A DNA stretch of 64,000 nucleotides, from positions 1 to 64,000 of IMG/VR virus record IMGVR_UViG_3300019755_000002. One strand, given 5' to 3'. The notes beneath the pieces were generated by a model. It saw only the letters and a list, made by a program, of their open reading frames with translations. It did no database searches and was not told the origin of the DNA. Made by a program: the position numbers and the translations under genes. The stretch comes from a virus. Shown piece after piece: positions 1,505 to 60,228 of this stretch (position 1 is the first letter of the stretch; each line of letters starts with the position of its first letter).

Positions 1505-1824
1505 TAGGCCATATTTTGTAAGTGGGCGTGGTGCTTGGAGTGTATCACGGGGGGAACGTGGTTCAAAAATTTTTTCTCATTTTTAATTTTTTTTTATTTC
1601 GGGTTCTAGACCCGCCCCCACCAAAACGCCCTCAAACACTAGAAAAAGCCTCCCCCCCTTGCTATCATTTATCACAAGTCGAGGGCAATCAGCCCACGAC
1701 CACATCAACAACCTGGTGCTATTTTTACGCCCACGTTGTGCCCGTTGACCTGTGCAATTTTGCCTAATTAACGGGTGGGGATATTTCCCCTCTTAATTAA
1801 ACTAAAATTTGGATTGACGATATT

Positions 1825-2709
1825 ATGACTACATTAAAAGCTAGCTCAAAAAACACCCCTTTTAACGCCTCACGCCTTACTTTAGTAATGCAAGCAGGAT
1901 TACAAAATTCACGTAAAGGTGCCCTACAAAATGGCCTGTCTCTAGCCGCCTCAACACTTGTTAAGGGTGAACAATTAACCACTTTAGAAATGGCGCAATT
2001 ACTAGCGGATTGGAAAGGTGATATTGCACCCTCTAGAAAAAAGGGCGATGCCAACGAGAAGCGCTTAGGCGAATTGGTTAAAAAGTACATGCAAGATAGC
2101 CGTCTAGTGGCTAGTGCTGCGGAACACATAAGCGAGCCGATCAAGACTATGTTTACTAATCTGTACACTTTTGAAGATGCTGAGACTTTTGCTCTAGAAT
2201 CGGAAAAGGTGATCAAAAACATTAAGTTTTTAGAAGCTTTGGAAATTGAAAGTAAAACGGATTTAAATTGTTTTTGGTCGGGATTCTTACCAGAAACAAC
2301 CACAACCGAGGCCGAAGCCGTAGAAACGACCACAACCGAGGCCGAAGCAGTAGAAACGACCACAACCGAGGCCGAAGCCGTAGAAACGACCACAGCCGAG
2401 GCCGAAGCCGTAGAAACGACCACAGCCGAAGCCGTAGAAACATCAAAGGCGAAAACTAAGGTTAATAAAGATGAAATCAACAATAGACAAGCATTAGCTA
2501 ATGATGCCCTTGCCTTACTTGCAGATGAAATGCCCTTTTTAGATGCTTTACTTGCCACGGCTCAAAAGCAAGACACACAAGAGGGCGTGATCTTGACAAT
2601 ATGTCAAGGATTTAAAGCTGAGCTTGATAAAGTTAACGCTGAAAAGCTGGCTTTAGAGAATAAGCTTCACAACTTGACGCCAAAAGCCAAGGCCAAAAAA
2701 GCTGCATAA
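1825..2709 (+). CDS. Hypothetical early protein with TTTEAEAVE repeats
   Basis: 294-aa ORF preceded by GGATTGACGAT and followed by a terminator. Confidence 0.8.
   Translation: MTTLKASSKNTPFNASRLTLVMQAGLQNSRKGALQNGLSLAASTLVKGEQLTTLEMAQLLADWKGDIAPSRKKGDANEKRLGELVKKYMQDSRLVASAAEHISEPIKTMFTNLYTFEDAETFALESEKVIKNIKFLEALEIESKTDLNCFWSGFLPETTTTEAEAVETTTTEAEAVETTTTEAEAVETTTAEAEAVETTTAEAVETSKAKTKVNKDEINNRQALANDALALLADEMPFLDALLATAQKQDTQEGVILTICQGFKAELDKVNAEKLALENKLHNLTPKAKAKKAA
2293..2442 (+). repeat. 27-bp coding tandem repeat (about 5 copies)
   Basis: GAAACGACCACAACCGAGGCCGAAGCCGTA-type units. Confidence 0.9.
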
Positions 2710-2742
2710 CAGCTAGCCACGTCCCAAGCCACAACATGAAGT

Positions 2743-2768
2743 AAAACCTAGCCCACGGGCTGGGTTTT
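2743..2768 (+). terminator. Intrinsic terminator
   Basis: AAAACCTAGCCC-ac-GGGCTGGGTTTT after ORF 1825-2709. Confidence 0.7.
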
Positions 2769-2796
2769 GTTGTGGGCGTTAATCAGGACACGTTCT

Positions 2797-3043
2797 CAGA
2801 CAGGTTTTTAATTTACGTTCGCGGTGGTGGGTAGAGTTCCCCACGGGGTAATGTTTCAATTATACCGCGAGGCTAAAAAACTGGGTGAAAAGTAAAATTT
2901 AGATTACAGACAGGTTTTTGAAAAGGGTGTCGGTGTTGGAAAAGTTCTCAGACAGGTTTTTGAAACAACCACGTTGACGGACAGGTTTTTAATCGTCAGA
3001 CACCTTTTTTAACAGTCAGACAAGATTTTGAAAAAGGTGTCTG
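2797..3043. repeat. Iteron-like CAGACAGGTTTTT repeats
   Basis: Copies at 2797, 2907, 2949; variants at 2978, 2997, 3017; inverted copy at 3031-3043; non-coding DNA. Confidence 0.8.
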
Positions 3044-3689
3044 ACAAGTCAAGGTTACATGTGGTCAAATAACAACCAAAAAATTAGAATCTATAGATTG
3101 AGATTTGCTTATTTCTTAAACGAATGTAGATTAAAAAACAAACAAAGCGAGCGTTTTTTTAGAAAACCTTAGTAGTGTGTATTTTTTGAACAAGAAAAAA
3201 AACAGAGGGTTAAAAAATAAGCAGTGAAAATTAGAGTTATTGCTCTAAGGACAACAAGACAAACCTAGACATAGAAGGACAAAGCCAGAAATTAGAGTAA
3301 TTACTCAGGACAGGTTATAGGTCTTAATGTCATTAATACCCTGTACCTGTCTAAGCTTTTTTTTTTCACTCCATTTACGGTGATCTTCCTATTTGCTCTT
3401 GTGTGGCGTTATTTTGGACGTTATTTTTCTTGTAGTAGGTGTACCTACAAAATCTATTTTAAGCCCGTTTCTGTTTTGATTTAACCCCTTAAATAGTGAA
3501 AACACCTGTGGATGTCGTCTTTATCTGTTTTAAAAACCACAACCACGGACACGACCACAAAAAAGGTTCTTTTGGAGGGTTGGAGTTGGTTATTTTTTAA
3601 CCTTTGAATCTAGACCTAAAAAATGACTTTTTTTTAGGACACCTTTTACAAGATCTAAAAATAGGTAGCGGACACGATTTCGCTACACA

Positions 3690-3938
3690 ACATATTATGT
3701 CAAGAACAGGGTTTTGATTGTCGGACATATTATGTCAAGAACATGGTTTTGATTGTCGGACATATTATGTCAAGAACCTAGTTCGATTGTATGACATATT
3801 ATGTCCCTTTTTTGATATTTTGGGCGTTAATGTTTATTTCATGGTTGATTGGCATAAAATTGTGGGCGTGAACGTTGATTTTTACCTATTTTTTATTCCT
3901 GTTTTGGGTTTTGGCGTGGCTGTTGACATAATATGTCA
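3690..3938. repeat. 34-35-bp tandem repeat with palindromic core GACATATTATGTC
   Basis: ACATATTATGTC at 3690, 3725, 3760, 3794; inverted TGACATAATATGTCA at 3924-3938. Confidence 0.9.
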
Positions 3939-4007
3939 CGGGTTTGGGTTGTATGCCTTTTTGAAATCCACGCCCTAAGCCAAAAATAAATGTTAACCAC
4001 GTCCAGA

Positions 4008-4116
4008 CCAGTGACCGAGCATCAAAATTATAACCCAAGGCAAAACACTGAAAATGGTTTTAGTGCCACGTCGAGGTAAAAAGCCTAAGCCTGCCAGTGA
4101 CCGAACATCAAAATTA
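4008..4116 (+). repeat. 23-bp direct repeat CCAGTGACCGA(G/A)CATCAAAATTA
   Basis: Copies at 4008-4030 and 4094-4116. Confidence 0.85.
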
Positions 4117-4266
4117 CTATTAAATTTTACGCCCCGACCCAACAGGGCAACAGAAATCTATTAATGATTAGTGCCCGACACCTTTTTAAGGGTTAGTTTC
4201 TGGTGCTAGCGATACTAAACCTACAAGGGGTAAGTTTCCCCACTTTAAAACTTGGAGATTGACGAC

Positions 4267-4716: not shown

Positions 4717-4732
4717 AATAGGGGTTGAAATT

Positions 4733-5821: not shown

Positions 5822-6195
5822 TGTCTATATTGATCACGATGGTTCTAGTTTGGCTTATGTGTCTTTTGGTGTTTGTTTTTAGGGTTAAGATTTTTGCTTT
5901 ATTTTCCAAGCCTGAGTATCTTGTTTTAGGTGAGAAAATAACTTGTTTACGATTGCAAATGTTGGCTAAACCTATTGCAGACAGGTACGAGGATTTAAAA
6001 GAAATTTCTATTCTTGAAGATAGATATTCTTTTTTAGTTGCGAAAAAAAGCGAAGTGCATTTAGTTAAAAAAAACGTGTTCCCTGTCGAAGGAAAAGTTA
6101 TCCCGCTAAGAGGGGAAACAACCCCACCAACAGCCACAATACCACATCGAGTTAACAAGCCGCACGTTGTTGATTACAAACAGTATCAGAAATAA
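5821..6195 (+). CDS. Single-pass membrane protein, translationally coupled to the upstream gene
   Basis: TAATG stop/start overlap; N-terminal TM helix. Confidence 0.7.
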   Translation: MSILITMVLVWLMCLLVFVFRVKIFALFSKPEYLVLGEKITCLRLQMLAKPIADRYEDLKEISILEDRYSFLVAKKSEVHLVKKNVFPVEGKVIPLRGETTPPTATIPHRVNKPHVVDYKQYQK

Positions 6196-6550
6196 TGCGT
6201 GCTGCAGTGGAAATATCAGGGTATTTAATCTCTAAAAGCTTGAGATCATAAGCTTTAAATAAACCCTCTTCAATTAAAGGGGTTAAGACTTGGGTTTCAG
6301 AGTTATCTTCCTTCAATAACAAAAGGTTATCGAGGCAGACATTAAAACTCAAGGCGCAAGTGATAGCCATATCTAGAACAGGCTTTAATGTCCCTCGGCT
6401 TACAATGGTATTAATTGTCCCTTGTGGAAACCCGTAAGTTTCATCTAAGGAACTAATACGCTTGTAGCCATGGAGTCTAGAGATTTTTTCAAGTACCTTA
6501 CGTACCCAAATTTTCTTTTCTTCTGGAGATTTAGATTCAAAAAATAACAT
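6152..6550 (-). CDS. CI-like phage repressor (HTH, 186/HP1 CI N-terminal type)
   Basis: ISSLDETYGFPQGTINTIVSRG...NVCLDNLLL pattern; divergent from the main early operon; start uncertain (6550 or 6634). Confidence 0.6.
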   Translation of the reverse strand: MLFFESKSPEEKKIWVRKVLEKISRLHGYKRISSLDETYGFPQGTINTIVSRGTLKPVLDMAITCALSFNVCLDNLLLLKEDNSETQVLTPLIEEGLFKAYDLKLLEIKYPDISTAARIISDTVCNQQRAAC

Positions 6551-6880
6551 TATGAGATATTCGCTTTTGTCGTGTAGGAGATAGACAAAGAATACACAAG
6601 GAAAAGGAGTATTTCCAGTGCCAACCAGAGACAAAGACAGACATTTTAGTACAAAATAATAACAAAAAGATATTTTAACAGTAAAACACTATCATTTAGA
6701 TATTATTTTTGTTATCTTTCTGTTCGTGGTTGCAAGCAACCGCACTTTGGCTATTGGATTGGCTAATTACGAACTATTGGATTGACGATTGAACGTTCCT
6801 ATTCGCTGATATCGTTTTTGGTGAGGGGTTAGCAATAACCCCGAGCTAATTTTATTAAACTACAACTTGGATTGACGATT

Positions 6881-7378: not shown

Positions 7379-7379
7379 T

Positions 7380-8105: not shown

Positions 8106-8147
8106 TTACCGTGCTTTTAATTAAACTAAAATTTGGAAATTGACGAT

Positions 8148-9890: not shown

Positions 9891-9962
9891 GAGTACAAAC
9901 AAGGTGGGTAAAGTTACCCACCTTTAAAGAGACAGAATTAAACTAAAATTTGGAGATTGACG

Positions 9963-10349
9963 ATGGAACTTACCATAGATCAACAACGAACAAATCTTTT
10001 CAATCAACTAGGCGCGTTCTTCGCCTTTAATAATGCTCAGTTTGCCGAAAAGCAACAAGAAAACACCACCTATGTGACTATGGGCGCGGGTTTAATTTGC
10101 CCTAAAGAAAATGCGTCGGAGCTTGTTGACGGTTTAGAAAAGTTAAGTAACGAGAGCATACGCTTAGACCTAGCCAACAACACCATTAAAGAAATTATTC
10201 ATCGTGAGCTGGCCAACCATGAAGCCCAAATCACAGGCGATATTTCTGACACGGTTGATGCTCTTGATGGTTATCCGATAACAGTCGAGCAGATACAGGC
10301 TGAGTATTCTGTTTTCTTTCAAAAGTGTGTTGACAACGACTGGTTTTAA
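9963..10349 (+). CDS. Hypothetical phage protein
   Basis: ATG within motif variant GGAGATTGACGATG. Confidence 0.8.
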   Translation: MELTIDQQRTNLFNQLGAFFAFNNAQFAEKQQENTTYVTMGAGLICPKENASELVDGLEKLSNESIRLDLANNTIKEIIHRELANHEAQITGDISDTVDALDGYPITVEQIQAEYSVFFQKCVDNDWF

Positions 10350-10883: not shown

Positions 10884-11756
10884 ATGAGTACATTCCCTTT
10901 AGCAGAAATGCACAAACACCCAGAAGATTTTAGATTGTTAACGCGAGTTCCTTACACCAAGGACAAACCGTTTCCTTTAAAACTAGCTGAGACGGTTGGT
11001 GATGAAATCCACTTTGTTATTCTCGATACTGAAACAACGGGGTTGGATAGCAAAACGGACGAAATGATTGAGTTAGGTGTTATTGGTATTTCTTATAGTC
11101 CCTCGGCTCAGCGTATCACCCAAATAAACGGTTGTGCTGACTTTTTTGAACAACCCTTAGTTCCTATTCCTGAGATTATCACCCAAATAACGGGTTTAAC
11201 GGATGCCGACGTTGCGGGATTTAGAATTGACGATAGCCACGTTGAGCAAATATTTTCGGGGGTAAGCCTCGTTATTGCTCATAACGCTCAATTTGACCGT
11301 GGTTTCTTTGATAAGCGTTTTCCACAGCTAAGTAACTTGCCGTGGGCTTGCAGTATCAAAGATGTTAATTGGCAAGACTATGGATTGGAAGGTAATAAAT
11401 TGCTGTTTTTACTATACCAGTTAGGTTTTTTCTATGAAGCACATCGAGCGGATATTGATTGTATTGCTACCTTGCGCTTGTTCCAAGAAAAGCCCGAGGC
11501 GCTTAATTCCCTGATAGCGTCAGCAAGTAAAAGCAGCGTCACCATTCGATGTCACACGGCACCTTTTAACGTTAAAGACCAGTTAAAAGAGCGTGGTTAC
11601 AAATGGAGTGATGTCGATCCAAACGCTAAGCATTGGCATGGCACGGTTGATTCAGACAAGCTTGATGAAGAACTTGAATGGTTAAAGAACCTTTGCCCTA
11701 CCAAGTACAAAAACTTTGTAAAAGAGCCGATAACAGCTCACAACCGTTATAAGTAA
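10884..11756 (+). CDS. DEDDh 3'-5' exonuclease (DNA polymerase III epsilon-like)
   Basis: LDTETTG, AHNAQFD, HRADID motifs. Confidence 0.9.
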   Translation: MSTFPLAEMHKHPEDFRLLTRVPYTKDKPFPLKLAETVGDEIHFVILDTETTGLDSKTDEMIELGVIGISYSPSAQRITQINGCADFFEQPLVPIPEIITQITGLTDADVAGFRIDDSHVEQIFSGVSLVIAHNAQFDRGFFDKRFPQLSNLPWACSIKDVNWQDYGLEGNKLLFLLYQLGFFYEAHRADIDCIATLRLFQEKPEALNSLIASASKSSVTIRCHTAPFNVKDQLKERGYKWSDVDPNAKHWHGTVDSDKLDEELEWLKNLCPTKYKNFVKEPITAHNRYK

Positions 11757-11815: not shown

Positions 11816-12136
11816 ATGAAAGTAACCATACATCAAAAAATACGCCTTAGAAGCCTTATGTTGCAGTACGGTATAAACATCAATGGGTACCTGAAGTGGG
11901 TAAACACCAATGACGTACTGACAAGAAAGGCATCTAGACGACGCATAGCTTTTTTTATCTATTCTTACACAGGACAAAGTGTCATGTTTGTTTTAAATAG
12001 TCCGTATACAAGATATTACAAGCCTCATAGATCAACCCTTAGGGACGGTGAACCTAGACAGCCTAGTAATACAAACCGAGTGGGTAACTTTACCCACCAA
12101 AAATTAATTAAACTAAAATTAGGATTGACGATATGA
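11816..12136 (+). CDS. Hypothetical basic protein
   Basis: ORF with AGGA RBS; 3' end reads through a hairpin module. Confidence 0.5.
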   Translation: MKVTIHQKIRLRSLMLQYGININGYLKWVNTNDVLTRKASRRRIAFFIYSYTGQSVMFVLNSPYTRYYKPHRSTLRDGEPRQPSNTNRVGNFTHQKLIKLKLGLTI

Positions 12137-12602: not shown

Positions 12603-12779
12603 ATGAGTACTCTAGGCCAATTACAAAAATTCAAAGTGGTTGTCACGAATGAAACGGTGGACTTTGAGTTTTATCTTGAACACAAGAGCATGTACTTAGC
12701 GGAATTAAGCACAGTGGTTTTACTGTCTATGGCTCCAAACTTACGCTTAAAAACAATTAAACAAATTAAACAGGATTGA
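12603..12779 (+). CDS. Small hypothetical protein
   Basis: Fills the gap in the operon. Confidence 0.5.
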   Translation: MSTLGQLQKFKVVVTNETVDFEFYLEHKSMYLAELSTVVLLSMAPNLRLKTIKQIKQD

Positions 12780-12781
12780 CG

Positions 12782-13924
12782 ATGATAAACATTAAATTAC
12801 ATAAAGAACTATTCAAAATTCACTCTAACGGCCAGATTGGATCTTGGTCAATTACCGTAGCCGATAAAGGTGATGGTACAGCCACAATGTTAAGAAGTGC
12901 CTGTAAAGTACTTGGTGGTAAAGCGGTTGAGACACCAACAAATTACACCGAGGGCAAGAACATTGGCCGAAGCAACGAGACGACACCATTAGAGCAAGCA
13001 CTCTTAGATGCCGAATCTCGCTACAAGAAACAACTAGACAAAGGTTATGTTGTAGAAATGCCAAAAGCTGGTGACGTTGTTACTAATAGTCTTGGCTTCA
13101 TTAAACCGATGCTTGCTCAACCAATTGAAAAAGTTAAAGATTGGAAATTCCCTGTCTATGTGTCTCCTAAATTAGACGGTCACCGAATGTTAGCGACCGT
13201 TCAAGATGGTGAAGTAGTGCTTTACTCACGACAAGGTAAAGAAGTCAGTGTTGAACACATTAGAGGACATTTGCAAATCTTGTTCGACAATAATCGTTGG
13301 GATGGCACGACCTTAGATGGGGAAATTTATCAGCATGGCGAAACACTACAAAGAATTTCATCTTTAGTTAAGAAGCCAAAGCCAGAATCAAATAACTTGG
13401 TTTATCATGTTTATGATATTACCGCTAAAAACGAGTCCTATGGCTCAAGATTAGCAACACTGAATAACCTCTTAACGCGATTTAGTAAGTCTATTGTGGT
13501 GGTGCCAACTAGCTTCGTTGGTTCGTTGACCTTACTTAATGAAATGCACTCGGAGCATATTGCCCAAGGCTATGAGGGTACTATGATCCGACACGGTGAC
13601 ACAGGATATGAAGATGGTAAACGCTCGAAATCGCTAATGAAGAAGAAAGACTTCCAAGACGCTGAATTTAAGGTGGTCAACGTTCTGGAAGGTAAGCCCG
13701 TTATTAAAGCGGACAAAACCTACAACGTGGCTATTTATGAATGTATGACCCCCGATGGTGGACTATTCACTTGTACTGCGCCAGGTACGATGCAAGAAAA
13801 GCATGACGCTTGGGTAAATCGTGCCGAAGCACTAGAAAAAATGCTAACCGTTAAGTTTTTCAACTACACACCAGACAACATACCCTTTTTGCCCGTGGCA
13901 TTAAGACTGCGTGAGGATATTTAA
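12782..13924 (+). CDS. ATP-dependent DNA ligase
   Basis: KLDGHR adenylation motif, LDGEIY, YHVYD, EGTMIR; C-terminal OB-fold-like region. Confidence 0.92.
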   Translation: MINIKLHKELFKIHSNGQIGSWSITVADKGDGTATMLRSACKVLGGKAVETPTNYTEGKNIGRSNETTPLEQALLDAESRYKKQLDKGYVVEMPKAGDVVTNSLGFIKPMLAQPIEKVKDWKFPVYVSPKLDGHRMLATVQDGEVVLYSRQGKEVSVEHIRGHLQILFDNNRWDGTTLDGEIYQHGETLQRISSLVKKPKPESNNLVYHVYDITAKNESYGSRLATLNNLLTRFSKSIVVVPTSFVGSLTLLNEMHSEHIAQGYEGTMIRHGDTGYEDGKRSKSLMKKKDFQDAEFKVVNVLEGKPVIKADKTYNVAIYECMTPDGGLFTCTAPGTMQEKHDAWVNRAEALEKMLTVKFFNYTPDNIPFLPVALRLREDI

Positions 13925-13983
13925 TTTCACTAAGTATGGTGGGTAAACTTCCCCACCATTAAACTAAAATTAGGATTGACGAT

Positions 13984-16049: not shown

Positions 16050-16104
16050 ACTTGCTCTAGCTACACGCTAGGGCATTAATTAAACTAAAACTAGGATTGA
16101 TGAT

Positions 16105-16872: not shown

Positions 16873-16898
16873 TTAAACTAAAAACTGGATTGACGACT

Positions 16899-17259: not shown

Positions 17260-17309
17260 ACCTCTAAGGGCTGACTCAGCCCTTAGCAATTAAAAGATGG
17301 ATTGACGAT

Positions 17310-23409: not shown

Positions 23410-23566
23410 ACTAACCAAGGTCAGGATTACAAGTCCTGACCTTGGGTGATAATTTACCCCTAAGCGACAACGTTTAGGGGTGTATTAACACCCTCACAAT
23501 TTGGATTGACGATACTAACCAGATTGAGAGTTAAATCTTAATCAATTAATCGAAAAGGTATACCCC

Positions 23567-24661: not shown

Positions 24662-24761
24662 AAAACAGCGAAAAAAAAAACTAAAGTAAAAAAGAACTAA
24701 ATTAGGTGGGTAAGTTTACCCACCTACTATTCAACTGAAAACAAAATTAGGATTGACGATC

Positions 24762-29983: not shown

Positions 29984-30210
29984 AAGGTATTTACCAGATG
30001 AATCTAGTCACAGAAGATTTACTTTTTATTTCTTTGGTTTTTTTCCTACTTACTGTATTAATTCTTTTTTTACGCCTAGAGGCCAAGCACATCAAGCATA
30101 ACTGGCTTAAGAAAGAAGAAAACAAAAATAAGAACCTTGGAAATCACCCTCAATAAAGAGTAATATCAACACTTAAAAATTAAACGTTTATAAAAATTAG
30201 GATTGACGAT

Positions 30211-30795: not shown

Positions 30796-30827
30796 GAAAC
30801 TAACTCAAAAATTTGGATGGATTGACG

Positions 30828-33800
30828 GTGGCCGACATGATCCCACAAGTATCATTAAGTATAATTACTAAACCAAGCGGAATACTAACTAAAAAACTAA
30901 GTGTTCAACAAGGTCGAGTAATAAGTGACTCTAGTGAATGTAGAATTAGTTCCGCTGTAGCGAATAGAATAACGCTACCGTTTGACCAAGTTCCACAATT
31001 ACTTAAAGAGTTGGGCAACAATCAATGTTGTGCGACGGGATGGGCGAACACCGACCACACCCAAGTTGAGTTAATGTCGCGAGACAAATTTGAGTCTAAG
31101 CATTACCAATTCCCCGTGCAAGAGTTACCGCACGGGGTTTATGCTACCAGAACACTAGACTCGTTTACTCAAAAAGGGCAAAGTCTAATCATGTTTGATT
31201 ACGACGACGATGAGGCTTGTCCGTATAAAATTAACTGCCCCGAGCAATTTATAGAATTACTATCACAAGTAATCCCAGACTTTAACAAAACCACCTATAT
31301 CCGAACATTTTCAACCTCGTCGGGTGTTTATGACCGCACAACAGGGGTTTGCCTAAAAGAAGCCGCAGGTTTTCATCTATGGATGGTTGTACCCGATGGT
31401 AGTGATATTCAACGATTTGGTGAAGTGTTAGAAAAAAGACTCTGGTTAGCTGGTCTAGGCTATATCAAAGTTTCGACTAAGAATGCCAACCTAAATATCC
31501 GTACTGTAATTGATACGGCGGTATTTAGTCCTGAAAGGCTGGTATTTGAAGCGGGGGCGGTTATTAGTGATGAAAGTATCGAACAACGGCTACCATCCCC
31601 TGAGTATAATGCCAAGCAATATAATTTACTTGATACCAAGAGACTACCTAACTTAAGTGATTTAGAGGAAAAGTCTTATCAAACGGCTATTTTAAATGCG
31701 AAACTAGCCGATCACGTTGTCAAAACAAAAAACGAAATTAAACAACGCATAGCCGACGATTTTGTTGTTAAAGCACAAATGGCGGGTAGAATAATTCCGC
31801 GTTCACAAGCAATGAGAATGGTAGAAAATTTAGAAAGGCATATTCTCCCACCATTTCATATTATTTATTTCGCCGACGGTTCACAAGCGACGGTAATGGA
31901 TATTGTTGCTAACCCCATGGCTTTCGATGGTCGTGAATGTTTAGACCCCATTCGAGAAGATAAGGGTCATGGACGCTCAAAAATCTTCGCTAATTTAGAC
32001 CAAGCCGTACCTAAACCACAAATACACTCTTTTGTTGAAGGTGGGCGTAACTTTGATTTAATGGCTTCTATGAAGTTATTACACGTAAAAACGGTTGACG
32101 AAGAATTTACCGCCTTGCGTGATTTAGTCACTACATACCAAAGTCAGGATAGTGAATACTTCAAAGCAATTGAACTTAAACCAGGTATTAATCTGATTAA
32201 AGGTGAAAAAGGCACGGGTAAAACCTTCACTATTGCAGAAACAATAAGAGCAACAGAATTAAGTGTTCTGGGGATTACCCCTCGAATCGGTTTAACTGAA
32301 ACGGTTTCAGACGACTTTGGCTTATCTTGTTATAACGACGAAAAATTTAAAGAAAGCCACGTTCTAAGGTCACAAAAACGATTAGCTATATGTTATGACT
32401 CTATACATAAGATTGCAGGACAGTATTTTGATATCGTTGTCATAGATGAAATTATTCAAGTTATGCGACACGTTAAATCCAGTTCGGTTAAATTTAAATT
32501 TGTTTGTTTAAATGTTCTCAGGTCTTTAATCTTAAACGCTAGATACGTTGTTATGATGGATGCCGATATCAGCGCGGATTATCTTGGTTTACTTAGAGAC
32601 CCAGATTTGGGCTGCTGTAAACAAAACGTAGACATAAATCTAATCCTTAATCATTACAAACCCGCTCAACGTCAGGGTAGAAAAATTTACAATTACATTG
32701 ACCTTGAAGATAAAGCCGATGAAGAAGCTTGGGGAATAAATTTACTTGAGTACGTGAAAGATAAGGGTACCTTTATTGCCACAAATGCTAGAACACAGGC
32801 ATACAATGTTGCCAATGAAGTTCTCGAATCTTGGGGTTTAAATGTTACCCTAGAACAAGGACATTTTATTACTGAAGTTAATGGTCGTCGTGTTATAACC
32901 ATAACCTCAGACAACTCGGGTTTGTCGGAAGTAGCGCAATTTGTAAGTAATATTAATAAAAATCTCAGGCCGACGGACGTTTTTATTTCTTCACCAAGCT
33001 TAGGTACAGGTGTCTCAGTTAATAAACGTGAAGGTAAGCCTGTATTTGAACGTGTTTATTGTCGCTTCACTAAACGAGCGGGTAACACCTCAGCCGATTG
33101 CTCTCAACATATTGCACGAATCCGTGGTTGTACCGAGTTTCACAACATCATTATTGATACGTTGGAGTGGCAAGAAACTGACCCAGAATTAATCGTAGCG
33201 CAAGAAATTTATGGTCGAGTTAAAGCTGTGGATGGCTATGTTCGTAGTAATGATTTGAACTTTGACCCCTACATGAATAAATACGTTTTTGCGGATAATA
33301 ATTGGGGACAGTGGTTTGGTTTAATGGTTAGTTTTGAAAACCTTGATCGTAATGAATTTGGCTTAAACTTCTTAACGCGATTAGAGCAAGAGGGGTATAC
33401 CATTGAGACAGTTAAATCGGAAATAGCCCCTGAAGCAAGGACTAAAAAGCATGAACAAACTAAGCGTGTAAAAACGAAACAGAAGGAGTTAGAAACACAA
33501 CTAACAGTTGATTCCCCATTATTAACAGATGAAGAAAAAGCGGAGTTAGATGCAAAGTCTCAGTTAACAGTAGATGAAAAACGTCAAATGCTAAAACGTA
33601 GCACTGCCGATGCCTTTGGTGAATACAACCAAGACGGATTGGAAGGTTTACTACGCCTGAGTAAAGCAGCATTAAAGTATCGTCGTTCAGGTTTATATTT
33701 TGGTATGAATAGCGAAACGTTGTTGTTAACCGATTTAAGTAATCGACTTGATCACGAAAAAATGCATATTGAAAAAACAGTACATTACCCCCGTTGGTCG

Positions 33801-34310: not shown

Positions 34311-34380
34311 TAGTGGGCTAATAGCCCAAACGGACTAAAAACTGTTTGGGCTTCAACTCAAATACAGACAGATAGGATTG

Positions 34381-34869
34381 ATGATGCGTACTAAAATGAC
34401 GCTCGGGGTTAGTCGTTCAAAAACAAACACGACGACAGAAACCAAGGCAATAAAACCAGAATTCTCCAAAGAAGATAAAGATGCTTATTACTGGCTAGGT
34501 CAGGTTATGGTTGAGTTGTATCGTCTCAAGTTTAGAATTAAATGGGATAAACCCCTTGCTAAGAACTTTTACAAAAAAGTACGTAAAGTTCTAAGCAAAG
34601 ACTTTATTTCATCAAAGAATCTAAACGCCGCTATTAAACATCACGTTAAATCACCTAAATATTTATTGATGTTAAGACCCGGCGTCTTTAGACATGACCT
34701 AAAAGGGAAACCCACAGTGGCGGTCACTGAATTTGAGTCTAAGCATGCCTTAACAGAGTTATACGAGCATCATGGCGCTTTTATGCGCGACCGTAGAAAG
34801 CGGAGAAATAAACAACCTATTACCTCCACAAGGAAAAATCATGTTACGAAACACAGGCAAACCCAGTGA
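34381..34869 (+). CDS. ProQ/FinO-domain RNA-binding protein
   Basis: KPLAKNF...LNAAIKHHVKSPKYL...RHDLKGKPTVAVTEFESKHA resembles the FinO-domain pattern PLK.GI...Y...R.DL.G...G.V...HA. Confidence 0.7.
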   Translation: MMRTKMTLGVSRSKTNTTTETKAIKPEFSKEDKDAYYWLGQVMVELYRLKFRIKWDKPLAKNFYKKVRKVLSKDFISSKNLNAAIKHHVKSPKYLLMLRPGVFRHDLKGKPTVAVTEFESKHALTELYEHHGAFMRDRRKRRNKQPITSTRKNHVTKHRQTQ

Positions 34870-35272: not shown

Positions 35273-35340
35273 TTGGTTGGCTCCAAAGGGAGCCGATTTT
35301 ATTCAGGTAGATACAATTTGGATTGACGATAGGATCACAC

Positions 35341-41128: not shown

Positions 41129-41196
41129 ATGCAGACAAGGAACGACAACAACGTCCTTGTCCTACAAATTAACTGATTGACGATATTGAGGTAACG

Positions 41197-41535: not shown

Positions 41536-41550
41536 CTTTGGATTGACGAT

Positions 41551-43056: not shown

Positions 43057-43069
43057 TAGGATTGACGAT

Positions 43070-43667: not shown

Positions 43668-44975
43668 CTACCAAACTACACCACCATCCTTATCCACTGT
43701 TCTAGTGTCAGTAGAAGAATTGTCTAATTTACGCTCAGGCAGTGGTGAATTTAACAGTTCTTCTATACGTTCACCCCACTTATTATACGCTCGTGCTTGA
43801 TCTGGAAGATAGGAGTTTAAATCATAAACATCTTCAACACCTGGGGTAGAGTGCCCCAACATTATCTCGGCAACGTGTGGTAACGTTATCTTTTCGCCCT
43901 TAATCTCTTTAGTCCAGTTGGTTCTAGCGGTTCTACGCAAGTCATGTATCGTCCAGTGAACCATCTTAACATTGAAGTTTTTAAGAATGTACGCATTGAT
44001 GTTCTTGGGTATGTTTAAGTGTGACTGACCTTTAGCTTTATCACTAAACTTATCTGGCTTAGTAATGTTCGTAAAAACAAATTCCTTAGACCCACTTAGG
44101 GACAGGGCTTGCACGATCAAAGGTTTAGAAAACTTAGTAATAGGACGGACAATGGGTAAATCCATAAATTCCCCTGTCTTATGTTCTTCAGGTAATAACG
44201 TCCACAGACCAGTATTAAAATCAAATTGCTTTGGATGTGAATTCGTCAACTCCCCTATTCGACAACCATAGTATAAACATAACAATACCTGTATCTTTGT
44301 CTTTGCTGCAGAACGTCCCAACGTAAGCGCCTTGAGAATATAAATTAACTCATCATCGGACAAAACTCTTTTTCTTTTCTTACGAACAATTTTCAAATCA
44401 CGTCTAGCACTAAGATGTGCTAACGGGTTTTCGTTAACGACACGTTTACTTATACCTCGAAAGTACACTTGTTTTAAAAAGGACAACATCACCCCCGTCA
44501 TGTACGGTCTAAGCGGCATGTGTTTTTCAAAAAAATCCATCCAACGAGCGGTGCTTATTTGTGAAGCTGGATAGCCCCCCATTTCAGAAAGTACGTGCTG
44601 TTTCGTGGCCTTAACATTTCGTGAAGCTTTTTTCTTAACGCCTTCCTGTTCGTACCAATCGAGAAATAAATCACTAAAGGTTGAATATCTACCCTCCCCA
44701 AATAAATTTTTTTCTTGGGTTATTTTTGGATGAACACCCTCAGCGATACCCTCTTTAATTTTGGCGTTTAACTTTCGGGCTTTACTAAGAGAAAGGTCGG
44801 GGTAAGTCCCTAAGTCTAGTCTAGAAGGTTTGCCCCCTTTTGGGTATCTATACCTTAGTTGAAAAACTATTTTCCCTTTTGCCGAGACTCGAACACTTAA
44901 GCCATTGCCGTCGCTCTTTTCATATGTGCGTCCTTTTTTATCAGGTGATTTTAACCAAGTGTCAGTTAAGGCCAC
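43668..44975 (-). CDS. int: Tyrosine integrase, P4-like, with arm-binding domain
   Basis: N-terminal DGNGLSVRV...LGTYPDLSL..AR; catalytic R (GCRIGE), HDLRR, LGH, Y. Confidence 0.95.
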   Translation of the reverse strand: MALTDTWLKSPDKKGRTYEKSDGNGLSVRVSAKGKIVFQLRYRYPKGGKPSRLDLGTYPDLSLSKARKLNAKIKEGIAEGVHPKITQEKNLFGEGRYSTFSDLFLDWYEQEGVKKKASRNVKATKQHVLSEMGGYPASQISTARWMDFFEKHMPLRPYMTGVMLSFLKQVYFRGISKRVVNENPLAHLSARRDLKIVRKKRKRVLSDDELIYILKALTLGRSAAKTKIQVLLCLYYGCRIGELTNSHPKQFDFNTGLWTLLPEEHKTGEFMDLPIVRPITKFSKPLIVQALSLSGSKEFVFTNITKPDKFSDKAKGQSHLNIPKNINAYILKNFNVKMVHWTIHDLRRTARTNWTKEIKGEKITLPHVAEIMLGHSTPGVEDVYDLNSYLPDQARAYNKWGERIEELLNSPLPERKLDNSSTDTRTVDKDGGVVW

Positions 44976-56400: not shown

Positions 56401-58194
56401 ATCTTGTGCATTTTGGTCAACTAATGGTCCTAAGTATTGACGTTCCCAATCCAATTCAGAATCTATATATGAAGAAACTATTTCATTCGGTCGCTCAGTT
56501 AAATCCGTATGGCTGTAAGTAAAGACCACGTTAGGACTCGTTTCGATACACTGCTCAGGGGTAATGGTGGCTACTGCGGCTGTGTTCCTGTCAGCAACAA
56601 TAACTAACTGACCATGTTCATCATCATAGGCCTGAGCATTGGCCGAGCCTAAAATGTAGTTGATAAGATCTAACCCATTTTGCTTTTCAGTGATCACACC
56701 ATTAAAAGTAAAACGCGCATGTTCCCCACCATCACCGTCTGACAACATTTCATCCGCATGTTTCGCTAACGTGTAGACGCGATATCTGTCTATCGTAACT
56801 CGTGGGTTTATACGGTAATAACCTATTCTAGTATTTGTTACTAGTTCATAGGCGATCCAAAAAGGGTTATCCGTCCATCTTTTTTCAGTTTTAAATTCCC
56901 CATCCCAAACAATGCTCTCATCATATGTTTTGGTCTCTGGGTTATAGTTGGTTGGTACTGAACAAAGTAAACCTTTCCATACCCCAGAAATATTTGGTAG
57001 GTTTTGAATTTCACTATTAAGTAGAGCGGCCACATGCAACATTGCCGTCCCTGCATGATATTCTGCCTCAGCTTCCGAACCAGCAATACCCACGTTTTCT
57101 GTTTCATAACTTAACCAAGAGATTCGTTGAATAAATTCTTCATCGTTCTCAACGCCAACTAACGTAACCGAAAGTTCAACGCCTTTTTCACTATTTGGTA
57201 CCGTAAAAGTGTAGCCTCGAACAAAGCCACCAACAGTTGTTTTTCCCTCGACAGTTATTTTGTCCGTTAATAGTGTTGGATTAGAAACTAAGTCATCTTC
57301 TTCAATAACGAGACGCCCCCACCCATCGACCACAATCCATTTAACCAACAAATCCATGCCTAATTCTTCTCTGGAATGCCTTTCAGCCACTTTTTCGGCA
57401 TAAAACTGGGCAAACTCTGCCTGAGTTTTACTTATCGTAGCCCCCCATTCATCGCGTTCAAGTTCAAGTTGAAACCACACCTGAGAATAGAAATATTTTT
57501 CGTATTTATTCGTCTCGATATTTAAAATCCAAGCACCGACAAGCGTACCTTGCTGACCTGCTTCGTAATAGAGTCCGAGATAATAGATATTAACGCGCCG
57601 AGGAATGGCTCCATTCTCTGGAGACATACCACCAGAAGATTCATCGGAAATAACCCGCTGCTTTATCGCCGTCCAATCTTCACCAATATAACGCCACTTT
57701 ATTGCTAATTCCGCACTTGACGATTTATACCCCTCATCAGTTGCGCGATATAATTGCTGTACAGCTAAGCGAATTTCAACTCGGTTATATTGTCCTGCAA
57801 TAGCTGCGGGTATCGTCCTAGTAAGTGTAACGTCGTCTACCAGTGTAGCATTAACAACGTGAGGAGAAGTGTTTCCGCCAAGTAGGTAAGCAATAGGACT
57901 TTGACCGTAAAGATTGTCTTCTAAATCCGTCAACACTTTTCCAGATTCAGACCGTAGAATAAACTCGGCTTCAGGAAATTGAAGTTCACCATTAACGTCT
58001 CGTATCGCAGTGTCATCCACAAAAAGATTCGCTAATTTTTCTTCTTCCGTGTCACCGTCTAGGCCATAGATTGGGCCTTCACAAATACCAAGAAGCATTT
58101 CAAAGCCGTCAGTAGACCATAACGAATCTCTATCGTTACCAGCGTCATTTCCGCCACCACTGCCCGAGGCAAATGTGGTCTTCATCTTCGTCAT
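53404..58194 (-). CDS. Central tail tip / host specificity protein (lambda gpJ-like)
   Basis: ICEGPIYG, VPTNYNP, WTDNPFW, FNIII-like region, ADKIAA repeats; start moved to the ATG after the motif variant. Confidence 0.92.
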   Translation of the reverse strand: MTKMKTTFASGSGGGNDAGNDRDSLWSTDGFEMLLGICEGPIYGLDGDTEEEKLANLFVDDTAIRDVNGELQFPEAEFILRSESGKVLTDLEDNLYGQSPIAYLLGGNTSPHVVNATLVDDVTLTRTIPAAIAGQYNRVEIRLAVQQLYRATDEGYKSSSAELAIKWRYIGEDWTAIKQRVISDESSGGMSPENGAIPRRVNIYYLGLYYEAGQQGTLVGAWILNIETNKYEKYFYSQVWFQLELERDEWGATISKTQAEFAQFYAEKVAERHSREELGMDLLVKWIVVDGWGRLVIEEDDLVSNPTLLTDKITVEGKTTVGGFVRGYTFTVPNSEKGVELSVTLVGVENDEEFIQRISWLSYETENVGIAGSEAEAEYHAGTAMLHVAALLNSEIQNLPNISGVWKGLLCSVPTNYNPETKTYDESIVWDGEFKTEKRWTDNPFWIAYELVTNTRIGYYRINPRVTIDRYRVYTLAKHADEMLSDGDGGEHARFTFNGVITEKQNGLDLINYILGSANAQAYDDEHGQLVIVADRNTAAVATITPEQCIETSPNVVFTYSHTDLTERPNEIVSSYIDSELDWERQYLGPLVDQNAQDKHGANVLEYESVGCIYAQEAWRKMYFRLISSQTETMSVTFMLPNAGIRFELFDIINIVDPDQDWGISGRILALENKKVTFRDPIYLEESGTFYFLVQTQSDAIETISFTVDRVGFFKELTLSVAPTLDLPQYPAFSIQRENSAPGISKPFRIVSISEVDPESKAVSLTAVEVNRNKHDAADNLLLTNKPSFNFDNPKTGESPQNITVLKQEYVNVKDQRQLNLWLTWDSPSKVYLGAYYELQVFKDGVDTGLRLTTNATLIEVPNVTVGDYGFTVVMVYNDKKFYSDLFKWTINELSFVLGEYSEDQLFTSLSFSFNQGDLTCLIEAEYLFDVDAPRSKMPLLSSGLISGVRFSLIDNKTETLLLEGTSSDGEITYTLLEHLKKLGAASNDLRLEFQLIDQQGEYSVLRVENITADGVPLIVDIETNVVRQSLSASPLFDELVIEDVLVEWWIAKVIEGEPLPNIVDAELIRTAPTLVDYFNLDADSQYLLWARSIGPFGTTAFFPEQGGVLVYINESPLSGEGELIEEIQAELDTIPRAWDAMVNDIRLAAGQALITQEGLINKQAIVDEGVTRSQQLGTLWQELGNLNGLFPITTTNISNNSISTPKLMANSVLADKIAANQIYANHITANAVTADKISANAVIADKIAAGAVVADKLAANSVLASKIAAGAITADKIAAYAITAGKIKALAIEAVHLAANSVTTSKLAADIVLAVDATFTGRLLCSSGNAKLDFNPATGKCDIETTSIKMRGGNGGSFSVTENNQGSTAFIFSDSSGYSRCYIPEKGGIISQPPASYVPADFDARGYSDWGLYISNRNAANNWRGIFSPGGVSPFTGRHICIVKTPHIIEVGDLVSRARVVVKSDISNSISEVKKTETFKEKNVYGVYSEALTLATYLNSYDQLPLGMTWEQLSEEFDMDDELVTINSVGEGLINVCGLGGNILDGDNLCSSAMAGKAQQQDDDLVYNYTVAESHEDVIFDYPEQVKQIACTYRF

Positions 58195-58234
58195 ATCGTC
58201 AATCATTCCAAATTTTAGTTACTTAGTTGTTTAA

Positions 58235-58867
58235 TTATTCATTGTTTAACGTAACGCTTAAATTTTCCCACGAGTCTTTAAATAATTGTGGTGTAAGCAA
58301 TAAGTCCGACAAATGTAACTCTTTTGTTTCTCTACTCACGGCATTAAGACTAAATATATGCCCCCCGTGTTTATGTCTTCCGAGGATAATCGGTATTGGT
58401 GTACCTGATTTTACGGTGTTTTGGTAACTCGTTACAGAATAATTTTTATTATCCTCGTCGGTTTCTTTTTTTATTGGATTTAGTAGTTCAACAACTCCAC
58501 CAAGAATTAAACCTACCCCCGCTGGTTGAAGATATGGTGCTGTAACAGGGGCAACGTAAGCCACGACCAAAAGCACAATACCGATCACAATTCTAACATT
58601 GGGGTTATTCCCTGAACCACATACGTCTTTAGGATAAATTACGCTCTCACTGGTGATGTTCAAAGTATTGACTTCTATAGGTTCATCTAAGCTTGAACTT
58701 TGAGTGCACTCTTTTACCCGACACAAAAAACGCTTTTGTGTGTTGTTTGGATTAAGCTCAGGTATTAATTGCAGGGAATTCAATGCTTCGCGTATCGTTC
58801 TAGCCGCCACTTTAATCGGTTTGGTGTACAGCTTGGAAATATCACCGTGTAATTGTATTGTGATCAT
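58235..58867 (-). CDS. Tail assembly protein (gpI-like)
   Basis: ITIQLHG..., NTVKSGTPIPIILGR. Confidence 0.85.
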   Translation of the reverse strand: MITIQLHGDISKLYTKPIKVAARTIREALNSLQLIPELNPNNTQKRFLCRVKECTQSSSLDEPIEVNTLNITSESVIYPKDVCGSGNNPNVRIVIGIVLLVVAYVAPVTAPYLQPAGVGLILGGVVELLNPIKKETDEDNKNYSVTSYQNTVKSGTPIPIILGRHKHGGHIFSLNAVSRETKELHLSDLLLTPQLFKDSWENLSVTLNNE

Positions 58868-58868
58868 A

Positions 58869-59225
58869 CTAAAAGTCTCGTCTGCTAAGATTCATAACTT
58901 TACCGTCAATTGCTTGATAACAAGCCACCCCCTTAACGCTAATAATGTAATGGGATAAATGGGGTAGCCTTTTAAAACATTCGTAGTCGTTCAATGATAA
59001 GTTGTAGCTTCTTAGAGTATGACTATGCCAGGTACTAACAATCTCACCTTCAACGTTATCCACGTCTTCGCTTAACATTCTAAAATTATCTCTCGGCTGG
59101 GTATGTCTGTTGGGTAGCTCGACAACCTCACCAGACTCAAGAATAACGCCGCAACGTTCTTCATTCCAAGTAGTTATAATAGCTAACCAATCAACCTTAA
59201 GACCCTCCTTATTAAGCATTTCCAA
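58869..59225 (-). CDS. JAB/MPN-domain tail protein (gpK N-terminal-like)
   Basis: ERCG, WHSHT...S.ND. Confidence 0.85.
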   Translation of the reverse strand: MEMLNKEGLKVDWLAIITTWNEERCGVILESGEVVELPNRHTQPRDNFRMLSEDVDNVEGEIVSTWHSHTLRSYNLSLNDYECFKRLPHLSHYIISVKGVACYQAIDGKVMNLSRRDF

Positions 59226-59703
59226 AACCTCCTAGTTTCTTTTTAGCCTCGTAAGGTAACTGGGATAAAATTACGGGGTTAACACTAGATAAGGTTCGTT
59301 CCATTTCCGTATGCCTTAAGACTTTTTTAACGCGCATTCTCCACTTTGGAGAATACTCTTCAATAAAACTACGTTGACCTTCCAAATGATGAAGGATTTT
59401 TCCTTGACCAACGTAGGTTGCAACGTGATTTGGGTGTTGCGGTCTACCCAAGCTAAGCAATAAAACATCACCTAGTCTAACATTTCTAGGATTATCACCA
59501 ACATCAACAAAACCCTGATTTTGAAATTCAGAAACAAAAAAGTTTAAATCTGGGTGAAGATACCAAAGATGTGGGCGAGCAAGGTCTATTAGCGTAACAT
59601 CCAAATACGACTGAAATAATTGCTGTACTAGGGTGTAACAATCTTGCCACCCCTCAACATACTCTTTACCTTGTAATGACAAAGCGGCATCAAAAAGAAT
59701 CAT
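59212..59703 (-). CDS. NlpC/P60 tail protein (gpK C-terminal-like)
   Basis: DCY, NHVATYVG...ILHH. Confidence 0.88.
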   Translation of the reverse strand: MILFDAALSLQGKEYVEGWQDCYTLVQQLFQSYLDVTLIDLARPHLWYLHPDLNFFVSEFQNQGFVDVGDNPRNVRLGDVLLLSLGRPQHPNHVATYVGQGKILHHLEGQRSFIEEYSPKWRMRVKKVLRHTEMERTLSSVNPVILSQLPYEAKKKLGGFGNA

Positions 59704-60185
59704 AAGCGCACCTGATTAAATTCAGGCTGTGTGAAACGTCTAGGCGGCAACATAAAATTATTACCATCCGACAGGTAGTTTAATTGGCAACTAATCATTT
59801 GACGATTAACTTCAACAATACGACTAACGTAAAATTGATTCGTTAAGCTTTCATTACTGTCAAGATTCTCTGGATGGACTAAATACTGGGTTACTCTCGC
59901 ATTATCCAAGTAACCTTTTTGGATGTAATAACTGTAAACACCTTCTGGGTTCGGCAATATTAATCGTGGACGTGTTTTTTCACCCCCGCTTTTATCACCT
60001 AAACCACTTAGATTAAAAGCGACTTTACTCCAAGTAAGACCATTCCATTCTAGGGTTTGTGACAAGCAAAAGTGCTGAACAACGGGGCCGTCGTCAGTTT
60101 CAATGTATATTTTTAGAAGTTCATAGGGCGCAGAGCTATTCAAGGAATGCTTCTCTTGCTCCATTCCCGAAGGCAAAACTTTCAT
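59700..60185 (-). CDS. Minor tail protein (gpL-like)
   Basis: Position between M and K; RPRLILPN, LP.R; RBS carries GGATTGACGAT. Confidence 0.75.
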   Translation of the reverse strand: MKVLPSGMEQEKHSLNSSAPYELLKIYIETDDGPVVQHFCLSQTLEWNGLTWSKVAFNLSGLGDKSGGEKTRPRLILPNPEGVYSYYIQKGYLDNARVTQYLVHPENLDSNESLTNQFYVSRIVEVNRQMISCQLNYLSDGNNFMLPPRRFTQPEFNQVRL

Positions 60186-60228
60186 ATCGTCAATCCAGAT
60201 TGTCGTTGTTCTTAAATTTGACTATAGC

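Follow-up and report, generated by a model that had tools for sequence, protein, structure and literature searches.

The window analysed here comprises bases 1 to 64000 of one 78,716-bp contig (IMG/VR record IMGVR_UViG_3300019755_000002), the 78.7-kb genome of a temperate marine siphovirus of the Pseudoalteromonas type. We show that a short sequence tag, GGATTGACGAT, recurs far above chance at translation starts of this phage in a constrained position and orientation, that one copy on the opposite strand lies within a conserved unit with the anatomy of a small RNA (sRNA) gene, and that, by comparison of their sequences, the tag and this antisense copy (the anti-tag) change together across four phages. 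With fair though far from complete confidence, we regard the tag as an RNA-level target site for a trans-acting phage sRNA whose regulon would be defined by pairing with ribosome-binding sites (RBSs); if so, one phage RNA probably controls the translation of most lytic genes.

The comparisons rest on three relatives. Searching phage records with tblastn gave Pseudoalteromonas phage KB12-38 (78,271 bp) as the sole close record, with approximately 68% nucleotide identity to the window phage where the two can be aligned and an L-like tail protein that is 55% identical. Two metagenome contigs were found through searches with the L-like tail protein, namely L037 (79.6 kb, of which 20.4 kb were examined; L protein 51% identical) and L038 (6.7 kb).

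Copies of the tag and their sequence context

Fifteen exact copies of the 11-mer are present in the window, whereas dinucleotide shuffles give an expectation of 0.03, and none of 100 such shuffles reached 15 copies. With at most one mismatch allowed, the whole genome holds 29 (approximately 30) copies, of which seven lie past the end of the window, at head genes and terminase-side genes. Their placement is tightly constrained: 24 of the 29 end between −2 and +3 nt from a start codon, the open reading frames (ORFs) concerned range from 38 to 1596 aa, and the tag is present at the first gene of approximately 25 gene clusters. Exceptions to this geometry are the copies at 6779, 23503, 35320, 41174, 11224 and 60277, among which the copy at 11224 lies inside an ORF and is probably due to chance.

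Orientation is constrained to a similar degree. The genome holds 29 exact GGATTGA 7-mers where approximately 10 are expected; 25 of these belong to the tag family and only one of the 25 is on the wrong strand. In KB12-38, GGATTGA is in the sense of the mRNA at 36 of 37 sites, and the corresponding GGACTAA of L037 is in sense at nine of 10. Each time, in all three phages, the single antisense exception is the copy in the M–L gap, which separates the M-like from the L-like minor tail gene. Four further copies of GGATTGA, on both strands of the window phage, fall outside the tag family against approximately 10 expected from composition, and this scarcity may reflect avoidance of off-target sites. 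A preliminary description of this DNA, made from the window alone, had listed 14 exact copies and nine variants at translation starts in the sense of the mRNA; all 23 are present, including the forms in which TTGGA is followed by 2–4 nt and TTGACGA, and the one antisense copy is additional to them.

On the plus strand, exact copies abut, closely precede or overlap a start codon at 1811–1821 (ATG 1825; preceded by a hairpin at 1777–1790 and by TTAATTAAACTAAAATTT), 6869–6879 (ATG 6881, the first early gene), 12122–12132 (ATG 12133; upstream hairpin 12079–12098), 12773–12783 (overlapping ATG 12782), 13973–13983 (ATG 13984, 512 aa), 17299–17309 (ATG 17310; upstream palindrome AAGGGCTGACTCAGCCCTT), 24750–24760 (ATG 24762 of a 5'–3' exonuclease-like gene before DNA polymerase A), 30200–30210 (ATG 30211), 41540–41550 (ATG 41551) and 43059–43069 (ATG 43070). 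On the minus strand, the exact copy at 60186–60196 precedes ATG 60185 of the L-like minor tail protein. Variants of the same length are GGATTGATGAT, whose C8>T change would pair as G–U, at 16094–16104 (ATG 16105) and at 34375–34385 (overlapping ATG 34384 of a FinO/ProQ-domain gene); GGATTGACGAC at 16887–16897 (ATG 16899 of a 38-aa ORF); and GGATTGACGGT at 30819–30829, which overlaps GTG 30828 of a 1160-aa primase/helicase-like gene and is also found before the KB12-38 ortholog of that gene. Longer variants are TTGGAGATTGACGAC at 4254–4266 (with AGATTGACGAC at 4256; ATG 4267), TTGGAAATTGACGAT at 8135–8147 (with AAATTGACGAT at 8137; ATG 8148 of a 580-aa DUF4942 protein), TTGGAGATTGACGAT at 9952–9964 (with AGATTGACGAT at 9954; overlapping ATG 9963) and, on the minus strand, GGAATGATTGACGAT at 58195–58209 (with TGATTGACGAT at 58205; ATG 58194 of a 1596-aa tail protein). 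Nine longest-ORF calls (at 4252, 6872, 8133, 9957, 12776, 24753, 30813, 34378 and 35323) open at a TTG inside the tag, whereas translation most likely begins at the ATG or GTG immediately 3' of it, which makes the earlier suggestion that the motif corrects ORF starts a reasonable one.

The remaining copies stand apart from start codons. An orphan copy in the leader of the early operon (6772–6789, plus strand, with the tag at 6779) consists of AACTATT and the tag and is followed by no start codon. The exact copy at 35320–35330 is 10 nt before ATG 35341 with a separate AGGA between, and the variant TGATTGACGAT at 41174–41184 is 12 nt before ATG 41197 with its own GAGG between, both on the plus strand. 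At 23503–23513 (plus strand) an exact copy is found 53 nt upstream of ATG 23567. In KB12-38 a tag lies 62 nt before the ortholog of this gene (record 58740–58801, coding sequence from 58802); the gene encodes approximately 364–400 aa in both phages and is annotated as a kinase in KB12-38, and in both the tag follows a conserved hairpin, AGGGGTGT..ACACCCT, and opens a conserved long leader. The 15th exact copy, at 60277–60287 on the plus strand, runs antisense to the surrounding tail genes of the minus strand; it is considered below.

In genes that lack the tag, (T)AGGA, GGAG or AAGGAG takes the place of the tag's GGA, at an equal distance from the start codon. Since GGA therefore sits at the ordinary place of a Shine–Dalgarno (SD) sequence, the tag is a short SD (GGA) joined to a conserved 8-nt spacer (TTGACGAT) and the start codon. 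Pairing of the tag with the 3' end of 16S rRNA beyond GGA was rejected, because the anti-SD is universal, TTGACGAT is unable to pair with it and the sequence of the tag after GGA changes from one related phage to another. This variation indicates that the reader of the tag is not 16S rRNA and must be phage-encoded. We also rejected TTGAC as the −35 element of a sigma-70 promoter: there is no −10 element at 16–18 nt, the sequence downstream being unrelated coding sequence. Sigma-70-like sites are not enriched (43 vs 44 expected).

Most copies form the 3' end of a cassette of 55–65 nt, which consists of a GC-rich palindromic hairpin, an AT-rich block, TTAATTAAACTAAAAT(T), the tag and ATG. An AT block similar to AAACTAAAA lies upstream of 22 of the 30 tags, a hairpin of −7 kcal/mol or better lies at most 75 nt upstream of 19 of the 30, and tagged genes follow a median intergenic gap of 62 nt, against 15 nt for other genes. 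The hairpins of the window phage, for example GGTGGGTAA..TTACCCACC or AAGGGCTGACTCAGCCCTT, belong to palindrome families in common with KB12-38, in which the former is represented by CGGGGTAACGTTACCCCG and the latter recurs unchanged; such palindromes precede tags at 9901–9924, 12079–12098, approximately 13938–13961, 17262–17284 and approximately 24716–24739 of the window and at many sites in KB12-38. They were rejected as classical sense-strand terminators, as no T run follows on the sense strand, and could be protein sites, processing sites or stabilizing hairpins.

The relatives have tags of their own. The cassette occurs approximately 35 times in KB12-38, with its own palindrome (CGGGGTAACGTTACCCCG), the same AT block, the core GGATTGAY, 0–6 variable nucleotides and ATG, and the commonest form of the tag is GGATTGACAAT. 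The tag of L037 is GGACTAACAAC plus (T/C/A)ATG, with four positions changed, and approximately nine sense copies are present in its tail module, within the 20 kb examined. In L038 the L gene is preceded by GGAATTGACGATG.

The antisense copy and a candidate small RNA gene

In each of the four phages one wrong-strand copy is present in the M–L gap, in a unit that reads on the strand of the tail genes. The candidate sRNA of the window phage is 82 nt long (60229–60310, minus strand) and comprises a 5' hairpin, the anti-tag ATCGTCAATCC (60287–60277), the linker AATAGTT, a 13-bp terminator stem (60269–60240) and a U tract; its 5' end at 60310 was placed by alignment with the promoters of the relatives. 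In the M–L gaps of KB12-38 (TTGACT-17-TACTAT), L037 (TTGACA-16-TAATAT) and L038 (TTGCCA-17-TATATT with an upstream TG) these putative promoters, all of sigma-70 type, pass a consensus scan. The possible promoter of the window phage (60311–60345, minus strand) is either TGGACT-17-TAATGT, which aligns with those of the relatives, or TTGTCG-18-TGtTATCTT, the choice made in the preliminary description, and both are weak. A second promoter-like site in L038 (396–424, TTGGCA-17-TACTAT) has a −10 that abuts the anti-tag, such that its use would start the RNA inside the seed, and is probably a chance occurrence.

The layout downstream of the promoters is the same in all four phages. The anti-tag starts 28–34 nt after the −10 hexamer and is followed by a linker of 7–10 nt and by a terminator on the tail-gene strand, formed of a 9–13-bp GC-rich stem and a T run, so that the predicted RNAs are 68–82 nt long. 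The terminator stems differ in sequence between the four phages. Anchored dissection was used for this comparison of the four RNAs rather than RNAalifold or a covariance model. The minimum free energy (MFE) of the window sRNA strand is −31.0 kcal/mol, against −20.0 kcal/mol for the opposite strand, and across the four phages the sense strand folds 4–11 kcal/mol better than its complement because of G–U pairs. In three of the four, the predicted 5' hairpin holds the part of the anti-tag that faces tag positions 9–11 and the AUG, leaving the 3' half of the anti-tag and the linker predicted to be unpaired, which in the window phage is (G)UCAAUCC-AAUAGUU. This unpaired stretch complements GGAUUGA(C), the part of the tag most conserved in KB12-38. 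The predicted fold of L038 differs, with its 5' hairpin upstream of the anti-tag and the anti-tag itself in a weak 3-bp stem.

In each phage the anti-tag has changed in step with the tag. The pairs are GGATTGACGAT and ATCGTCAATCC in the window phage, GGATTGACAAT and ATTGTCAATCC in KB12-38, GGACTAACAAC and GTTGTTAGTCC in L037, and GGAATTGACGAT and ATCGTCAATT(UC) in L038. We also considered whether the copy at 60277 marks the start of a small protein gene on the plus strand, and rejected this possibility: the frame has nine codons only, is not conserved and is absent from L037 and L038. More generally, reading on from the M–L copy on the opposite strand gives 9–10 unrelated codons in two of the phages, and the remaining two have no ATG there; the lack of a conserved ORF indicates that this copy is not a gene start. 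An Rfam cmscan search of 59900–60700 up to E = 10 returned only chance-level matches to unrelated families, and no match to the C4 family.

Pairing, proposed function and competing explanations

Several features of the tags and anti-tags argue for RNA–RNA pairing. At tag position 9 the window RNA has C and all 21 of the 21 start sites with an exact core have G, whereas the KB12-38 RNA has U and its sites have approximately 20 A, seven G and three T. This pattern is as Watson–Crick plus wobble pairing would predict and, judged from these sequences, KB12-38 looks like an evolutionary intermediate. Position 8 lies opposite a G of the RNA; in either phage it is C or T, apart from one A. Departures from the core at real starts are few and are often A7>G, as at the tape-measure gene of the window phage and at two genes of KB12-38. 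The early leader complements the candidate sRNA without mismatch over 18 nt (6772–6789), a stretch that extends into the linker, and the early leader of KB12-38 matches over 15–16 nt at two sites (L001 41504 and 41557); ordinary tags do not match the linker, the extended match being confined to the early leader. A 1-nt indel in the RNA (TCC-AATAGTT vs ...TCCAAATAGTT) is mirrored in these leader sites (CTATT-GG vs CTATTTGG), approximately 25 kb away. Of 105 translation-initiation regions, 28 form predicted duplexes of −14 kcal/mol or better with the cognate seed, many of them at −19 to −27 kcal/mol, while shuffled seeds (n=200) reach this threshold at a mean of 1.9 regions.

The phage also encodes a potential partner for such an RNA. 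The tagged gene at 34384–34869 (plus strand) specifies a 161-aa FinO/ProQ-domain protein (Pfam PF04352, E 1.3e-10, 41.7 bits vs a cut-off of 27), and its KB12-38 homolog is annotated PFAM-ProQ. Proteins of the FinO family bind terminator hairpins and promote antisense pairing (PMC9977716).

From these features we infer that the RNA is produced and pairs with the tags, together with the sign and timing of regulation and the role of the chaperone. The phage sRNA, of approximately 82 nt with a mostly single-stranded seed, would pair with GGAUUGA(C) of the mRNAs, covering the SD and usually also the AUG in predicted duplexes of −17 to −27 kcal/mol. It would thus block 30S binding on approximately 25–30 phage mRNAs, both early and late, with its strongest sites being the tandem sites in the leader of the early operon. 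Binding of the FinO/ProQ-domain protein, encoded by the same phage, to the terminator hairpin of the sRNA would speed pairing. Replication and accessory genes fill a long plus-strand block at approximately 1.8–43.7 kb, beyond which the lysis, tail and head genes lie on the minus strand. No tag is present at those genes that one would expect a lysogen to express: the preliminary description had stated that the motif is missing from the integrase gene (43668–44975, minus strand; of the arm-binding tyrosine type), the weak CI-like repressor gene (6152–6550, minus strand), the two minus-strand genes furthest to the left and the peptide operon, and our analysis confirmed this. The absence of the tag from lysogeny-side genes and its presence at both early and late lytic genes favour a function on the side of lysogeny. 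The sRNA may thus provide a second, RNA-level silencing of lytic genes that mops up leaky transcripts or those of incoming homo-immune phages, and induction of lytic transcription would titrate it out, giving a threshold.

A number of points weigh against this interpretation. The promoter of the sRNA is weak in the window phage, with no minus-strand match in the consensus scan and agreement at 7–8 of 12 consensus positions, and the RNA may exist in this phage only as the 3' end of a tail-gene mRNA. The MFE folds hold the 5' part of the anti-tag in hairpin 1. An inverted copy of any motif co-varies with the motif whatever the reader, and co-variation alone is therefore no proof of RNA–RNA pairing. 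In KB12-38 positions 10–11 are often non-pairing, with position 10 often T or C, and the variable positions all fall towards the 3' end of the tag, a part in which tolerance might be shown by any reader. Late structural genes are tagged too, including the gene just downstream of the sRNA, and this defeats the logic of a late RNA that shuts off early genes. Four copies are located 10–90 nt before the start codon, such that the tag is not strictly an element of translation starts. Pairing also leaves the AT-rich block and the upstream palindromic hairpins unexplained, although these may have a transcriptional or processing function of their own that is compatible with an sRNA. Finally, only four family members were found (the window phage, KB12-38, L037 and L038). 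Searches of viral contigs and species genomes, with the L-like tail protein or with its alignment, gave nothing close. The pattern TTAAACTAAAA-N(2-9)-GGATTGA had 33 single matches in viral contigs, all attributable to chance and none accompanied by further tag copies, and a pattern for the sRNA core had no matches in viral contigs and three chance matches in species genomes of unrelated taxa. The distant relative Lumi has an M–L gap of 44 nt and no such RNA.

The preliminary description had proposed sRNA target sites in place of operators or promoters. The RNA unit conserved in four phages, the co-variation of its seed, the absence of a −10 after TTGAC and the failure of the 16S rRNA reading sustain this proposal; the promoter that fails the scan in the window, the possibly separate action of the AT block and hairpin, and the four distant copies temper it. 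Its further argument, that substitutions within variant tags would still pair as G–U with the seed, is no more than suggestive for positions 10–11, the non-pairing bases at position 10 of KB12-38 again being relevant.

We also weighed explanations in which the tag is not a target for an RNA. An unlikely though by no means negligible alternative is that the tag belongs to a cis-acting start cassette read by an RNA- or DNA-binding protein of the phage that co-evolves with it, the M–L RNA then acting only locally, either as a terminator whose leader sequesters the L start in read-through transcripts or as an autoregulatory decoy. The anti-tag (60287–60277) and the tag of the L gene (60196–60186) are approximately 90 nt apart on the same strand and could form a long inverted repeat, and weak precursor-like Rfam matches extend across 60177–60296. 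However, a strong terminator separates the anti-tag from the L start in all four phages, such that pairing in cis would need read-through. The conserved palindromes before many tags of the window phage and KB12-38 (GGTGGGTAA..TTACCCACC and GGGCTGACTCAGCCC) resemble dimer-binding sites, DNA-binding proteins were favoured by Pope et al. for the analogous start-associated repeats (ESAS) of mycobacteriophages (PMC3203893), and positions 10–11 of KB12-38 depart from pairing rules; these points speak for a protein reader. No sequence-specific RNA-binding candidate emerged, however; Pfam, run on 10 window proteins, gives only the structure-specific FinO/ProQ domain. A protein reader also leaves unexplained both the extended, indel-matched complementarity to the distant early leader and the pattern at position 9, where C is met only by G and U by A or G.

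There is a small chance that the cassette of hairpin, AT block (with TAAACT or TAAAAT) and tag is a phage-specific promoter with its initial transcribed region, comparable to the '-10 only' late promoters of T4 and recognized by the host RNA polymerase together with a factor from the phage. Transcription would start in or just before the tag and give very short leaders, and the tag would be kept for promoter escape or for recognition of the 5' end. The long gaps before tagged genes and the frequent AT blocks and stable hairpins described above are consistent with this explanation, as are the four tags situated 10–90 nt upstream of a start, two of them with a second SD, which is what one would expect of a 5'-end element. 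The AT block is retained in all three phages with enough sequence, even where the tag differs, and the ESAS upstream of SAS in Adephagia were proposed to hold promoters (PMC11373665). Set against these points, the distance between AT block and tag varies (approximately 2–3 nt in the window phage, 5–8 nt in KB12-38 and approximately 4 nt in L037) whereas that between tag and ATG is tight, the block has no −35 partner, the −10-like hexamer of KB12-38 (TAAAAC) lacks the conserved final T and, as noted, sigma-70-like sites are not enriched. Neither the 10 window proteins scanned with Pfam nor the KB12-38 annotation include an RNA polymerase or sigma factor, and the orphan copies in the early leader and the M–L gap have no AT block. 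Such a promoter would in any case be compatible with control by an sRNA and does not exclude it.

It is very improbable that the repeats are recombination or mobile regulatory cassettes, akin to the promoter-early stem-loops of T4-type phages and kept alike by gene conversion with no trans-acting reader: the same cassette does precede unrelated genes, and gene content between cassettes does differ between the window phage and KB12-38, but orthologous sites keep their own variants in both phages, against homogenization (GGATTGACGGTG before the primase/helicase-like gene and the +1 C before the exonuclease-like gene), recombination does not need strict sense orientation or a set distance to ATG, and one inverted copy at a fixed place with a promoter and terminator is left unexplained.

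Two further observations concern the phage at large. A protein identical to the L-like tail protein of the window (P0001, 59700–60185) is present on four contigs, and its occurrence on the longest of these, at 444 kb, indicates that the phage also exists as a prophage; it is probably integrated in at least one sequenced bacterium, and a lysogen thus probably exists. Separately, approximately 1.5 kb of the window (2710–4250) hold hardly any convincing ORF and are rich in repeats, with 35-bp tandem units bearing the palindrome GACATATTATGTC at 3690–3805, an inverted copy at 3923–3937, several CAGACAGGTTTTT units and a 25-nt inverted repeat at 2988–3052. This region looks like an origin, a partition site or a region bound by a regulator.

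Significance and relation to known systems

Known phage antisense RNAs act on one or two sites. If our interpretation is correct, a single RNA that governs most lytic operons would represent a new scale of post-transcriptional control in viruses; lysogeny and immunity would gain a further, RNA-based layer, with a bearing on prophage induction, superinfection exclusion and phage engineering. The system should be more tractable than those of uncultured phages, since KB12-38 has been isolated with a named host (Pseudoalteromonas sp. KB12-38), a lysogen of the window phage probably exists and the family of the candidate partner chaperone is well studied.

The promoter-early stem-loop (PeSL) cassettes of T4-type phages, reportedly described by Arbiol et al. 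in 2010, resemble the cassettes of the window phage in that a repeated intergenic stem-loop and an expression signal precede many unrelated genes. They differ in having a canonical sigma-70 early promoter, no start-adjacent tag and no antisense copy.

A closer parallel to the proposed mechanism is provided by pairs of FinO/ProQ-type chaperones and sRNAs. In one such pair the sRNA RocR recognizes a box common to the RBSs of several genes and represses them. The pairs FinP/FinO, RocR/RocC and Inc/FopA (PMC9977716) join a FinO-domain protein of a mobile element to a terminator-bearing antisense RNA that blocks RBSs, a partnership for which the window phage has both candidates. FinO-family pairs have far fewer targets, however, and the targets of the candidate sRNA of the window phage are the phage's own genes.

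Immunity RNAs of other phages offer a parallel in function. The CI RNA of satellite phage P4 is an antisense RNA of phage immunity, and in P1 and P7 a few bases of RNA and target change together, giving hetero-immunity. The c4 antisense RNA of P1/P7 acts in immunity (Citron & Schuster 1990, as cited in PMC8201110). Like the RNA proposed here, c4 and the P4 RNA are small phage RNAs that act in trans on sites in lytic-operon leaders, including the RBS, as part of immunity. They differ in having one or two targets in one operon and in being processed from the transcript of their own operon, whereas the window phage has approximately 30 dispersed targets and an RNA gene in the tail module; the C4 family of Rfam has no similarity to the window sRNA.

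The closest published analogue of the tag is the system of start-associated sequences (SAS/ESAS) of Cluster K mycobacteriophages, an analogue and not a sign that the window phage belongs to Cluster K. SAS are asymmetric repeats of 11–13 nt, present in 11–19 or more copies, which are located a few nucleotides before start codons, mostly ATG, and contain an SD core with conservation beyond the reach of 16S rRNA; about half have an upstream inverted repeat (ESAS), and their function was still called unknown in 2024–2025 (PMC3203893; PMC11373665; PMC12699233). The two systems thus have in common more than 10 copies far above chance, proximity to starts, a single orientation, an SD core within wider conservation and a subset with upstream inverted repeats. 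SAS differ in sequence (GGGATAGGAGCCC), in their actinobacterial host and in being carried by unrelated phages. They are also confined to the non-structural arm, whereas the tag of the window phage is found at head, tail and terminase-side genes as well. Moreover, the opposite copy in the window phage can be assigned to a candidate RNA gene, with seed, terminator and a possible promoter, that changes along with the tag among relatives, and no such assignment is reported for SAS in the three papers cited above.

Since 2011 SAS have been recorded in hundreds of mycobacteriophage genomes with no mechanism attached to them, and this question has become testable, as a candidate reader can now be named for the tag of the window phage, namely a small RNA gene whose promoter, seed and terminator recur, and whose seed co-varies, across four phages. 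In Cluster K a conserved GC-rich hairpin in a non-coding gap carries the single reverse SAS, read on the gene strand, as its 10-nt apical loop CCUCCUAUCC (Adephagia JF704105, record 58640–58720, between genes 92/93; Anaya JF704106, record approximately 59830–59910, between genes 96/97). By analogy this hairpin may be an anti-SAS RNA, which we offer as a lead rather than a result. A broader hypothesis, which we hold tentatively and think somewhat more apt to fail than to stand, is that a constitutive sRNA and its FinO/ProQ chaperone form a genome-wide immunity and threshold layer over approximately 30 lytic operons and the tandem sites of the early leader, and that G–U-tolerant drift of seed and tag gives rise to hetero-immunity groups. 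Were this true, KB12-38, whose seed has U and whose targets have either A or G, would be an intermediate of such drift, and the SAS of Cluster K mycobacteriophages would be explained along the same lines.

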